A stretch of DNA of 64,000 bases from assembly GCF_044324785.1 (NCBI RefSeq), contig NZ_CP172127.1. One strand, written 5' to 3'. The notes beneath the pieces were generated by a model that was not told where the DNA came from, did no database searches, and saw nothing but the letters and a program-made list of their open reading frames with translations. A program made the translations under genes and the position numbers. This DNA comes from Escherichia coli. Its GTDB lineage: Bacteria; Pseudomonadota; Gammaproteobacteria; Enterobacterales; Enterobacteriaceae. Of the stretch, positions 41,717 to 50,761 are shown piece after piece. Position 1 is the first letter of the stretch; every line of letters starts with the position of its first letter.

Positions 41717-43342
41717 TCAGATTACGTGCGGTGTGATCAGCACAACCAGAATGGTGTCATCGTCACCGCTGTCAGTGCCGCCACCCAGCCCGAAGAATGC
41801 CGGGCTGCCGACGCCCTGGCGCACGGATTTGCTGCCGGACTGCCGGAATCCGCTGAGAATGACGGTCTGACCTGATTTCAGGTCGATGGTCTGGTTGATG
41901 GTTTTCAGGTCCACCGTGGGTACCTGTGCCCGGCTGCCGCCGCTCTCGAACACCTCAAAGGTGGGTTTGTCGGAGAGGTTCATGCTGAAGAGCAGCTGCA
42001 GGCTGCGCGCATCCGGCTGAATGAACGGCAGCAGGGTCATGTTGAAGCCGGTGGTGATGGTGGCGGCGTTCAGGGAGGTGCTGGTCCCGACGTTGGCCGT
42101 GGTGTCGGTGGTGACACCTTCGATATAGCCCTGCTGGCTGGCCACCTGCATGGGCACCGGCGTCATGTTTTTGGTGACGGCGGAGTTCTGTGTGACCACG
42201 CTGACGGTGCCCTGACTGGAGAGCGCCTTCAGGAAGGCCTTCGAGCCGGTGAGCTTACCGTCCACAATGGAGACGCCACTGGTGATGATGTCATCGGCGG
42301 CACTGCTGAATGCCCCTCCCAGCGTGAGGCCGAGACGTCCGTCGCTGAAGACGGCATTCCAGTCAATGCCGGCCTGGTCACGGCGGGTTTTTCTGACGCT
42401 GAGGACTTCCACGTTCAGCACCACCTGACGTCGCATCTCGCGGTTACGTGCCTCCACAAAACGGCTGACGGTGTCGAGGACCCGAGGGGTGTCGGTGACG
42501 GTGAGAAAGCCGGTGGCAAGCACCATCCGGCCGGTCCCGGGGGTCAGCATGGCACCGACGGCATTTTTCAGGTCCTCATAGAGGGTGGACTTCATGTCGA
42601 CCGTGGTGGTCTGGGTGTTGCTGGCCTCCCCGCTGAGGGTGCCGGCGTTACTGCCGGTACTGCTGCCGGATGAGGAGGAGGCGGTGCCACTGACCACCCG
42701 GGCGTTGTAGGTCACCTGAGAGTCCATGTAGGTGACCGGGAAGGTGCGTGTCTCCAGCCAGTAAAAGGTGATGGCGCGCCGGTCACTGTCGTAACGGTAC
42801 GAGATACCGAGCCGGGAGGCGACGGTATCCAGCAGCTGCCGCAGCCCGGTGGCGCTGAGTTCCGGCAGGACGGCACCGCCGCCCGGGGGGATGACCTGTG
42901 CGCCACTGCCGACGGCGGCCAGCGGCACCATGCCGTTCGGGTCCGGTGCGGGGATTGCGCCTGTCAGCTGCTGTGTGGGGCCGGTGGTGGCCAGCGCCTG
43001 CCAGACGTCGGCGGTGATGGTCACGGGGATACCGCAGCTTCCGGTGATGCGCTGGGCTATCTGCCGCAGGCTGATATCCCGGCGGGTGTTGATGATGATG
43101 GGGCAGCCCGGCAGGCTCTGGTGTGCGGGGCTGACGCTGACAGGGGAGGGGTTGATCCACTGTCGCGTGGTCTCCGTGACCACCGGCCGGGATTTACGGA
43201 GTTCGCCTGCGTGCCGGCGCGCTTTCTCCAGTGTGGCGGTGGCGTCTTTTTCCGTGTTGCTGATACGTTCGGCCGTACCGCAGCCTGACAGCAGCAGGGC
43301 GACGGCAGTCAGTGGCAGGAGCATGTGTTGTCTTTTTTTCAT
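41717..43342 (-). CDS. pilN: PilN-like secretin-type outer-membrane lipoprotein
   Basis: about 541 aa from MKKRQHMLLPLTAVALLLSGC (lipobox); C-terminal secretin-like domain. Confidence 0.65.
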   Translation of the reverse strand: MKKRQHMLLPLTAVALLLSGCGTAERISNTEKDATATLEKARRHAGELRKSRPVVTETTRQWINPSPVSVSPAHQSLPGCPIIINTRRDISLRQIAQRITGSCGIPVTITADVWQALATTGPTQQLTGAIPAPDPNGMVPLAAVGSGAQVIPPGGGAVLPELSATGLRQLLDTVASRLGISYRYDSDRRAITFYWLETRTFPVTYMDSQVTYNARVVSGTASSSSGSSTGSNAGTLSGEASNTQTTTVDMKSTLYEDLKNAVGAMLTPGTGRMVLATGFLTVTDTPRVLDTVSRFVEARNREMRRQVVLNVEVLSVRKTRRDQAGIDWNAVFSDGRLGLTLGGAFSSAADDIITSGVSIVDGKLTGSKAFLKALSSQGTVSVVTQNSAVTKNMTPVPMQVASQQGYIEGVTTDTTANVGTSTSLNAATITTGFNMTLLPFIQPDARSLQLLFSMNLSDKPTFEVFESGGSRAQVPTVDLKTINQTIDLKSGQTVILSGFRQSGSKSVRQGVGSPAFFGLGGGTDSGDDDTILVVLITPHVI

Positions 43343-43531
43343 GCAGAAATCCTTGTGTGAAACGTGAAAACAGTGAGCAGAGCAGGGAGGGCAGAAGCGC
43401 TTCGGGACTGAAGTCTGCGCGTGATGGCGATATATCCGCGGGACATGACCGCGGCCGGATATGCAGACTTCAGTCCACAGGCTCCTCACACTGTGCGGGA
43501 CAGCGAAGGTTAACGGTGCAGTGATGTCCCG

Positions 43532-43969
43532 CTAGTTGAAATAAACAAATGCGCTGTCAGGAATGACGGACGGCACGCTGATACCGGTGTCCTGACCTGT
43601 GGTGTTCAGCAGTCGCCGCCCCTTCACCCGGCCTGCCAGCGCGGTTTTGTGGGTGATGTCTGCCAGCGCACCTGCAAGCCCCGGGCGGTCATCCTGCCAG
43701 ACAAAGACCCGCTGTCCGGCGATGATATGGCGGGTACCGTATACCGGGCGGAAACCCGTGGCGGTGACGGGGAGCGTGCCACCCCCCGTGCGCTCAGCCG
43801 GATGGGTGTACAGCCGGTCGTTAATGCCGTTCATGAGGCGGACCATCTCCCACGCACGTTCACGCATCTCCGCCTGCTCGCTGTACACGGTGACCCGGTG
43901 GGTACTGCTGTTGTGAAACCAGGTCAGCGCCACGGTCAGGGCCATGACCAGGGAGAGCGACCAGCCCAT
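43532..43969 (-). CDS. pilM: PilM-like protein
   Basis: about 145 aa with N-terminal TM; start adjacent to pilL stop. Confidence 0.5.
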   Translation of the reverse strand: MGWSLSLVMALTVALTWFHNSSTHRVTVYSEQAEMRERAWEMVRLMNGINDRLYTHPAERTGGGTLPVTATGFRPVYGTRHIIAGQRVFVWQDDRPGLAGALADITHKTALAGRVKGRRLLNTTGQDTGISVPSVIPDSAFVYFN

Positions 43970-43971
43970 GG

Positions 43972-44697
43972 TCAGTCTCCCGGTCTGTCGCTGACGTGCA
44001 CCACACACTGCGTGCTGTTGATGGCTGCATACAGCGGCGTCTGTGCGTCCTGATAGAGACGGAAGAGTTCACTGAGCGCGTGGCGGAACTCGCCGGTGAA
44101 ATGCAGCGGCGCATCGATGCTGTAATTGAGTCCGGGGTTCTGCCAGGCCAGCTGCCAGGTGCCACCGGCCTGACAGGGAACGGCGGCCACCCACTGCTCA
44201 AGACCGGCACGCAGCAGGGTTCCGCGGGCAAGAGTCCAGGTGGTCCGTGCATGCGCCGGTTGCGGCATGTTTGCTGATTTTTCCGCGGTTTTTTCCTGCA
44301 GACTGGTGGTGCCCGGGGTGGCCTGAGACGGACTGAACAGGGTGTTCCGCTCAATACGTACATGCTTCTTCTCCGTGTCGGTGATGGCGCGGAGCTGATA
44401 TTTTTTCAGCATGCGTTCCGTAACGTAATTCCACTGGTCATTTCCCTTCCATGACACCGTGCGGGGCGGCCTGACATCCGGTGCAATGTCAAATGTCCAT
44501 CCCGGCGGTATCAGTTGCTGCATGGCTTTTTTCAGTGATAACCCTTTACCGTCCCGGGGAATAAATTTCAGTGCTCCCGGAGCGCTGCTGACCGTGGACG
44601 ATGAGGGTGCACTGACCTGAGAAGGTGACGGTGCAGCAAAAAGTGGAACAGAAAATGCCAGCAGCGGCACAATAAGAAGTGGTTTCAGTGGTGTCAT
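43972..44697 (-). CDS. pilL: PilL-like conjugative-transfer-region lipoprotein/secreted protein
   Basis: 241 aa with signal peptide; first large gene of pil operon. Confidence 0.55.
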   Translation of the reverse strand: MTPLKPLLIVPLLAFSVPLFAAPSPSQVSAPSSSTVSSAPGALKFIPRDGKGLSLKKAMQQLIPPGWTFDIAPDVRPPRTVSWKGNDQWNYVTERMLKKYQLRAITDTEKKHVRIERNTLFSPSQATPGTTSLQEKTAEKSANMPQPAHARTTWTLARGTLLRAGLEQWVAAVPCQAGGTWQLAWQNPGLNYSIDAPLHFTGEFRHALSELFRLYQDAQTPLYAAINSTQCVVHVSDRPGD

Positions 44698-49872: not shown

Positions 49873-49948
49873 TGGTGCCCGGAGGCGGAATCGAACCACC
49901 GACACGGGGATTTTCAATCCCCTGCTCTACCGACTGAGCTATCCGGGC
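49873..49948 (-). tRNA. pheV: tRNA-Phe (anticodon GAA), variant T-stem
   Basis: 76 nt ending CCA; matches E. coli tRNA-Phe as recalled except T-stem GGTGG/CCGCC instead of CTTGG/CCGAG (compensatory). Confidence 0.9.
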
Positions 49949-50053: not shown

Positions 50054-50761
50054 TCAGGCAAACCAGGCGGTCCAGGCGGCGGAAAGCGGCATTGCCAGAA
50101 GGAGTGCTGGAAGCATGTTGACCACCGGGAACATTTTAATACCACAGATGCGTAATCCGGTTGCCAGCAGCAATAAACCGCCTACGGCGCTGAAGTCTGC
50201 CATCATCGACGGTGTGGTCAGCGGTAATATCAGCGCGGCAGCCCACGCCAGTGTTAACTGGATGATCAGTAATGGAATGCTAATCACCGACACCGCAATA
50301 CCCAGCGAGCAGGCGAAGATCATCGCCGTAAAGAAATCAAGAAATGACTTGGCGATTAAAATACTCGGATCGCCGGTCATCCCTTCGTTCATCGCCCCGA
50401 AGATTCCGGTGCCGCTGGCGCAAAACAGAACAATAATCGCGACAAAATTCTGAATAAAAGATTCATGCGCTGGCTTCTTACGCGAGTGGTGAAACAGATT
50501 ATGCGCTTTGACGACCACTGTATTGACGCCTTTTTCCAGCAGACAAATTTCGCCGATTAATGCTCCGAGTAAGGTTGCTAAAACCATCGCCGGAAGGTTG
50601 GCGCATTTCACCACCAGTAAAATACCAATCCCCAGCGATGCCAGACCAAAAATTGATGTCATGGAGACGCGGATACGTTCCGGTAAGCGTTGGCTAAGGA
50701 GTGCGCCGAAAACGCCACCCAGTAAGACTGCACTTGCGTTGATAAAAGGGCCGATGACCAC
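50054..50761 (-). CDS. yqgA: DUF554 inner-membrane protein YqgA
   Basis: 235 aa, near-identical to E. coli YqgA as recalled; synteny. Confidence 0.85.

Follow-up and report, generated by a model that had tools for sequence, protein, structure and literature searches.

The pilM–pilN junction

The window (the whole 64,000-nucleotide stretch of Escherichia coli DNA that was analysed) carries a type IVb pil operon of the R64 type, as recognised from Pfam matches and RefSeq products. The operon comprises pilL, pilM, the secretin gene pilN, pilO, pilP, and genes for an ATPase, a platform protein, the pilin, a transglycosylase, a prepilin peptidase, pilV and a shufflon recombinase; Pfam identifies pilL (TcpQ-like), pilO and pilP as the neighbours of the pilM–pilN pair. 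A sequence-only reading of the region had singled out the spacer between pilM and pilN as an interruption of an otherwise tightly packed operon. Its coordinates and gene names were correct, but both genes and the functional orientation have to be assigned to the minus strand. The interruption is clear: the spacer measures 189 bp (43343–43531), compared with 0–58 bp for the other gaps of the pil operon. The features that define the junction are as follows.

43532–43969, minus strand: pilM coding sequence, 145 aa from the ATG of MGW...; Pfam PilM match
43343–43404, minus strand: linker, lineage-specific, C-rich and G-poor, ending in the AAGGA of pilN; not conserved elsewhere
41717–43342, minus strand: pilN coding sequence, secretin lipoprotein of 541 aa; Pfam Secretin_N_2 and Secretin; RefSeq annotation on the identical E. 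coli chromosome

The pilM stop codon lies at 43532–43534 (minus strand). Alignment backs the conserved ATG as the start of pilM, since all eight homologues compared (8/8) begin MGW. The RefSeq start, a GTG at 44008, gives a protein of 158 aa and a 37-nt overlap with pilL, as against just 4 nt when translation begins at the ATG at 43969; the RefSeq start is probably too far upstream. On the other side of the spacer, pilN starts with an ATG at 43342, behind an AAGGA ribosome-binding site at 43350–43354, and encodes a lipoprotein signal (MKKRQHMLLPLTAVALLLSGC) with the lipobox LLSGC. Ahead of this ATG the pilN frame is open for 49 more codons, as far as a GTG at 43489 (41717–43489, minus strand; an ORF of 590 aa), and so runs through the whole of the hairpin described below. 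We rejected an N-terminal extension of PilN from this GTG as spurious because a lipoprotein signal peptide has to be N-terminal; moreover, the extension is not conserved. The linker (43343–43404, minus strand; CUUCUGCCCUCCCUGCUCUGCUCACUGUUUUCACGUUUCACAC), itself lineage-specific, resembles a Rho-loading site in composition.

A conserved hairpin in the spacer

The hairpin in the spacer is real: it spans about 95 nt, is structured and is strongly conserved. At its base is the 14-bp inverted repeat that had been noted from the letters alone, GGACTGAAGTCTGC at 43405–43418 with its exact complement at 43463–43476. This repeat exceeds chance expectation: when the spacer was shuffled 3000 times with its dinucleotides preserved, perfect inverted repeats reached 12 bp at most. 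The second, GC-rich palindromic core said to lie inside it is likewise present, as two copies of CCGCGG (43436–43441 and 43449–43454) nested in ATATCCG...CGGATAT. The core region, 43389–43485, has a predicted folding energy of -45.2 kcal/mol (z = -4.65), which none of 200 shuffles equalled; the whole spacer gives z = -2.19. Read in the direction of pil transcription, the parts are arranged as follows.

43495–43532, minus strand: hairpin A, a GC-rich stem of 8 bp (GCGGGACA / TGTCCCGC) beginning at the pilM stop codon; inverted repeat and fold
43389–43485, minus strand: hairpin B, the conserved element; match to covariance model R1 with 68.3 bits, E = 1e-15
43463–43476, minus strand: 5' arm of the lower stem in pil-sense RNA, GGACUGAAGUCUGC; complementary to 43405–43418 at 14/14 positions and 83–91% identical across lineages
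43432–43462, minus strand: upper and apical stem-loop, AUAUCCG...CGGAUAU enclosing CCGCGG/CCGCGG; repeat and fold
43419–43431, minus strand: one-sided junction loop on the 3' side, in sense AUCGCCAUCACGC; contains the conserved ATCGCYAY block
43405–43418, minus strand: 3' arm of the lower stem, GCAGACUUCAGUCC; within the right block, which is 77–98% identical across intact lineages

Hairpin B is the sole copy found by model R1 in the 64-kb window. Its lower stem is 14 bp in the window and about 17–19 bp in the other intact lineages, where a 12–14-bp stem is prolonged by UUCUG/CAGAA across one A·C mismatch; the upper stem is predicted to be 7–13 bp in the intact lineages. The junction segment is 11–13 nt long and reads AUCGCUACGGC in the other lineages. 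A mini-hairpin, C(UACG)G or C(UGCG)G, is predicted within it in five of the seven variants, and the window copy has a 6-nt loop instead. In the lineage represented by contig L070 the tetraloop has changed from UACG to UGCG, so that a UNCG loop is retained.

Hairpin A is a different matter. A counterpart at the same position, of different sequence (ATCCCC/GGGGAT), is found in most other lineages and is lacking in L070; its sequence is not conserved and some lineages have insertions in the loop. A further match to an arm of hairpin B (12/14; GCGCTGAAGTCTGC) occurs at 50187–50200, just past the tRNA-Phe gene that bounds the host element. It has no partner arm and we judged it to be a chance match.

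Host elements and distribution

Among 5426 complete genomes, the window spacer is carried by 36, all E. coli, at 38 places. Each match covers the spacer in full with at least 99% identity and none is on a plasmid; the carriers are largely poultry E. coli. On an E. coli chromosome with a 100% identical spacer, the operon belongs to an annotated integrative and conjugative element (ICE) adjoining tRNA-Phe (49873–49948 in the window). The ICE contains a tyrosine integrase, a relaxase with a TraI domain, a UvrD-like helicase, TIGR037xx transfer genes, and the pilL–pilV cluster with its shufflon recombinase. By this annotation it is an ICE of the pKLC102/PAGI-2 type, and it fits the description of ICEEc2 from avian E. 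coli; we call it ICEEc2-like. Base composition along the window is strongly mosaic: GC content is 56–62% over the initial 10 kb, falls to about 36% at 22–26 kb and reaches 64% at 42–44 kb, around pilM and pilN; the low-GC region corresponds approximately to a type III restriction-modification system in the matching E. coli record. This mosaic suggests that the ICE was built from parts of differing origin. ICEEc2 is cited as an ICE of pheV/pheU (PMC11537424).

The hairpin was found in six lineages, in each directly 3' of pilM save for a single IncI2 copy split by IS1.

Lineage 1: the window type, including metagenome contig L004, which has an identical spacer and a PilN only 91% identical
Lineage 2: a second E. 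coli ICE (L005), pilM–pilN gap of 208 bp, 18 chromosomes
Lineage 3: IncI2 plasmids, R721 among them; 516 records with at least 95% identity
Lineage 4: an IncI2-like variant (L031)
Lineage 5: L070, with the order NusG paralogue, pilL, pilM, element, pilN
Lineage 6: a degenerate Salmonella copy (L007), gap of 111 bp

The IncI2 carriers reside in Escherichia, Salmonella, Shigella, Klebsiella and Citrobacter. The hairpin is intact in 515 of the 516 IncI2-type plasmids. In the exception, pFORC_081_2 (L009; 690–720 and 1465–1480), IS1 is inserted inside the left arm of the upper stem with the target duplication TGCATATCC, which leaves the two halves about 0.8 kb apart; this only disrupted copy may be a natural mutant.

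Each mobile element has one match to R1, and neither the 64-kb window nor R721 contains a second copy. A pattern scan of metagenomes returned the same lineage types together with chance matches, and every true match adjoined pilM. A search for PilM homologues recovered the same ICE only, and a PilN search of genome contigs a single distant locus. A dispersed repeat of the REP, ERIC or MITE kind was rejected, the element being single-copy and in the same pilM-adjacent context throughout.

The sequence-only reading had proposed a comparison with other R64-type junctions. In seven such operons the hairpin is absent and the gap between pilM and pilN is 18–55 bp; covariance model R1 found no match in the four of these seven loci that were searched.

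IncK2/Z plasmid pECOED: gap of 30 bp
IncK2/Z plasmid from Salmonella: gap of 30 bp
Salmonella contig L059: gap of 30 bp
Locus L061: gap of 48 bp
Locus L069: gap of 31 bp
Pseudomonas aeruginosa plasmid: gap of 55 bp
Erwinia plasmid: gap of 18 bp

The earlier reading had also tied the spacer specifically to pilN, and this part did not survive the comparison. In IncI2 plasmids the element is followed by an unannotated ORF of 132 aa (orf132), then virB1–virB11 and virD4, with pilN on the far side of these genes. Since the next genes in IncI2 are not pilN, the element belongs to the 3' end of pilM.

Gene order around the element varies further. L031 couples a pilM resembling that of L005 (62% amino acid identity) with downstream genes of the IncI2 kind; in L007 and L070 an IncI2-like pilM (87% amino acid and 82% nucleotide identity) is joined to pilN; and in IncI2 the virB1–virD4 block of about 10 kb is placed between the element and pilN. 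By these gene orders the element sits at a recombination seam of the pilLM, pilN–V and virB modules, where a conserved island of sequence may serve as the crossover point.

Sequence constraint, pairing and strand bias

We compared the element with the genes beside it. Two closer pairs excepted, PilM proteins of the six lineages share 36–44% amino acid identity, and they are no less similar to PilM from element-free operons than to one another. Third codon positions of pilM are 25–36% identical between lineages and are thus saturated. Against this background the left block of the element is 83–91% identical between lineages and the right block 77–98%, and the apical part 15–45%. A core of about 45 nt has stayed about 90% identical while the neighbouring proteins diverged to 36–44%, which points to a strong sequence-specific constraint, probably imposed by a host factor. 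These comparisons support strong purifying selection on the element, and the earlier view that the spacer is structured rather than filler holds.

The least conserved part is still constrained in its pairing. The AUAUC/GAUAU helix is conserved, and the apical stem above it differs in sequence from lineage to lineage yet always pairs (CACAU/AUGUG, AUGUC/GACAU, UCU/AGA, GGAAUA/UAUUCC and CCGCGG/CCGCGG). In an alignment fitted to the model 95.8% of cells pair, compared with 23–46% when partner columns are slid. Two pairs have been altered on both sides, among the changes one from C-G to A-U at pair 29:50. Four pairs of the lower stem have been altered on one side only and all four changes give G·U in the pil-sense strand, where the other strand would have A·C mismatches.

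The predicted folds show a similar tendency with two exceptions. The sense fold is more stable than the antisense fold by 1–8 kcal/mol in seven of the nine variants folded. The window copy, which has no wobble pairs, folds better as antisense by 4 kcal/mol, and the degenerate Salmonella copy (L007) does so by 10 kcal/mol, with two changes that keep pairing on the antisense strand only. The polymorphisms seen among IncI2 plasmids fall in a 3-nt bulge or convert G·U to A-U, and additional IncI2 variants yielded no new ones. Overall, about four to six changes are compatible with pairing in sense and two, both in L007, in antisense; coming from five or six independent lineages, this is suggestive of a bias toward the pil-sense strand.

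These data also bear on whether the hairpin does anything at all. A functionless relic, whether the remnant of a miniature transposable element or the scar of a recombination event, would account for the degenerate Salmonella copy and for the IncI2 plasmid that tolerates IS1 in the hairpin. Such a relic would not be expected to persist at 77–98% identity beside saturated synonymous sites, nor to be found as a single copy with no other context, and we regard this explanation as extremely unlikely.

Known signals and alternative functions

The element matches no described family, although the pil operon and the ICE family that host it are already known. Its sequence, or any mention of it, was absent from the searchable literature, including work on IncI2 plasmids concerned with PcnR, TP114 and type IV secretion. 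Against Rfam 15 the window gave only noise (E of at least 2, bit scores far under the cut-offs), and the IncI2, L005 and L031 loci gave no match at E of 1 or below. A small conserved ORF was rejected: the spacer ORFs are 24–35 aa long and their frames differ among lineages, since the spacings from block to block are not divisible by 3 and an indel of 2 nt is present. No RfaH ops site was found in the ICE, and the ops-like GTAGCG of the junction loop is on the wrong strand for pil transcription.

Attenuation, one of the functions suggested earlier, finds no support on the pil-sense strand, which has no U-tract terminator after either hairpin. A scan of 43000–44000 on both strands gave no intrinsic terminator or attenuator, and the tails that follow hairpin B (CGAAGCGCUUC in the window, AAAAUCUUU in IncI2) contain no U-tract. 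In IncI2, by contrast with the window, hairpin A followed by ATTTAGTT (L008:2521–2538, minus strand) scores as an intrinsic terminator in the antisense direction. A FinP-like cis-antisense RNA that represses the downstream gene might end there, and both the combination of a conserved stem with variable loops, which recalls FinP alleles, and the ProQ/FinO protein encoded by IncI2 (PMC8053102) would suit it. The window lacks the corresponding antisense U-run after hairpin A, no FinO-like gene is annotated in the ICE, and an antisense promoter was not found in the window and is not conserved among the lineages, each of which has its own sequence downstream of the hairpin. We consider an antisense RNA of this kind very unlikely.

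The scan for sigma-70 promoters was negative: there were no sites in the window region on either strand, and the sigma-70-like sites in IncI2 and L005 were no commoner than in shuffles, with none overlapping the conserved blocks. This speaks against an internal promoter for the downstream genes and so against one form of the proposal that the element works as double-stranded DNA. The other form, an operator bound by a regulator, would explain the conservation of a palindromic sequence, and its placement ahead of pilN (in IncI2, ahead of the virB block) would suit either form. The distance from arm to arm, however, varies between 44 nt and at least 51 nt and is unsuited to a dimer on B-form DNA; the preserved apical pairing and the one-sided wobbles indicate an extruded hairpin; and we saw no regulator common to the ICE and IncI2. 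A double-stranded site thus appears very improbable.

Another possible role is antitermination by a cis-acting RNA. Here the hairpin, once transcribed, would either modify the polymerase or obstruct Rho, in the manner of HK022 put, Bacillus EAR or the Rho-antagonising element of Salmonella, and would thereby allow the long operon behind it to be transcribed in full. The element lies near the start of very long operons, which comprise some 10 kb of pil genes in the window and more than 20 kb of virB–virD4–pilN–V in IncI2, and the C-rich, G-poor tract behind the hairpin in the window is in keeping with such a role. A sequence maintained despite divergent element proteins is also in line with a target in the host, RNA polymerase for example. 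Additionally, L070 encodes a NusG paralogue just upstream of pilL (L070:642–1106; Pfam NusG, E = 1e-11), and its presence implies that termination control matters for these operons; it suggests dedicated antitermination control on at least some of them. Nevertheless, such RNAs are rare, the element bears no likeness to any Rfam family, no downstream terminator was identified, and seven related operons function without the element. We therefore view this possibility as decidedly doubtful.

Finally, the hairpin might act on the single DNA strand that is transferred during conjugation, where a host replication or repair factor in the recipient would recognise it, for example as a priming site for the complementary strand; the hairpin would then be the enterobacterial equivalent of a single-strand origin. 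The element is confined to conjugative elements, with one in each, and its near-invariant stem would imply a conserved host partner. In R721, the placement of mobC–nikB (plus strand) and of stbB indicates that the transferred strand would be the pil-sense strand, the one that the wobbles favour; this assignment, made for IncI2 (R721), also relies on the general organisation of MOBP systems. For the IncI1 and F plasmids, a role in conjugation is established for hairpins on single-stranded DNA (PMC12672017).

Several observations tell against this explanation. No -35 or -10 boxes are reconstituted in the hairpin and the strand expected to be transferred in R721 is the pil-sense strand, not the template, so that the element does not fit an Frpo-like single-stranded DNA promoter. 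The IncI2 element lies outside the leading region, and a role in transfer would not explain why the hairpin kept its place beside pilM when modules were exchanged at least three times. The mini-hairpin at the junction, moreover, has a UNCG loop, an RNA-specific stabiliser. Nor is the element the origin of transfer of IncI2: in R721 it is about 35 kb from mobC/nikB, and the IncI2 oriT adjoins nikAB and abolishes transfer when deleted (PMC11878559). Motifs beside hairpin A that resemble MOBP nick sites (ATTCTG/AGCCTG) vary in their distance to the hairpin and were for this reason put down to chance. On balance we hold a role on the transferred strand to be unlikely.

A proposed cis-acting RNA in the operon transcript

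The reading we favour, tentatively and with less than even confidence, is that of a cis-acting RNA in the operon mRNA, an RNase III-type site that would determine processing or stability. Of the earlier suggestions, a processing or binding site is thus the one that agrees with the anatomy. Because it is single-copy, fixed in position within an untranslated gap of a long operon and near-invariant in stem and junction, with an apex that is variable yet paired, the element is better explained as a hairpin than as a flat DNA site. A host factor conserved across Enterobacteriaceae is a likelier reader than a protein encoded by the mobile elements, since their own proteins have diverged to about 40% identity.

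In the model that we propose, the element would be read on the pil-sense strand, within a polycistronic pil mRNA that in IncI2 would span the pil and type IV secretion genes. A conserved host factor would bind it as its site, and a double-strand-specific, RNase III-type cut would separate the pilL–pilM segment from the genes downstream, leaving stable hairpin ends that protect the products. The predicted geometry is suitable: a coaxial helix of at least 20 bp with an asymmetric internal loop is an arrangement familiar from RNase III signals, the R sites of phage T7 among them, and this is what is predicted in the intact lineages. UNCG tetraloops, which stabilise RNA specifically, are predicted at the junction of most variants.

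Some features do not sit easily with this proposal. A near-invariant stem sequence is not usually needed at RNase III sites, and a reader with more sequence specificity may be involved. The window and L007 copies fold better as antisense, which counts against an RNA. The wobble bias, for its part, cannot separate RNA from transferred DNA, because the strand expected to be transferred in IncI2 is also the pil-sense strand, and G·T pairs are tolerated in single-stranded DNA too. Against a need for the element altogether, one natural IncI2 plasmid persists with its hairpin split by IS1.

A bolder possibility, which we think somewhat unlikely, is that the hairpin represents a new class of host-read signal, either a protein-independent antitermination RNA or a single-strand origin, common to IncI2 plasmids and ICEs of the ICEEc2 type. 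If so, the near-invariant stem and junction would be the part that RNA polymerase, Rho or a priming enzyme recognises, and an antitermination RNA would let a long, horizontally acquired operon escape Rho-dependent or intrinsic termination. The relevance of the element comes from its presence in essentially all IncI2 (mcr-1-type) plasmids. It is mainly these plasmids that carry mcr-1 colistin resistance, and an element in the middle of their transfer operon is without an Rfam family. Identification of the host factor would reveal how expression or establishment of the transfer system is controlled, and the element itself is a potential small cis target for blocking transfer. As a marker of the point at which pilLM, pilN–V and virB modules recombine, it also helps to explain how these mobile elements are assembled.

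Relation to known systems

The closest parallels to the favoured cis-acting RNA are the intercistronic RNase III signals of the phage T7 R sites and of the rpsO–pnp and rnc leaders. Both they and the element have a long, near-perfect helix with an asymmetric internal loop; like these signals, the element lies between cistrons of one operon, and its hairpin ends would stabilise the products. It differs from them in a far more conserved stem sequence and in the third mini-helix at the junction, and cleavage here is a prediction.

Like HK022 put and Bacillus EAR, the latter located between epsB and epsC, the element is a conserved, structured sequence of the sense strand, intergenic and early in a long operon, and recognition by host machinery would be a further common property; it matches neither put nor EAR in sequence or structure, the Rfam search having been negative. 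With Frpo/ssi of F and IncI1 plasmids, and sso of RCR plasmids and ICEBs1, it shares a strand-specific hairpin, a conserved stem sequence, a single copy per mobile element and, in IncI2, a position on the strand expected to be transferred. In contrast to Frpo it has no promoter boxes, lies outside the leading region and is about 95 nt long rather than about 300 nt.

The operons of the R64 type and of IncK are set apart from ours by lacking the element. The ICE in the window, compared by description, resembles ICEEc2 in its integration at tRNA-Phe, its tyrosine integrase and TIGR037xx transfer genes, and its pilL–pilV cluster with a PilV adhesin and shufflon recombinase.
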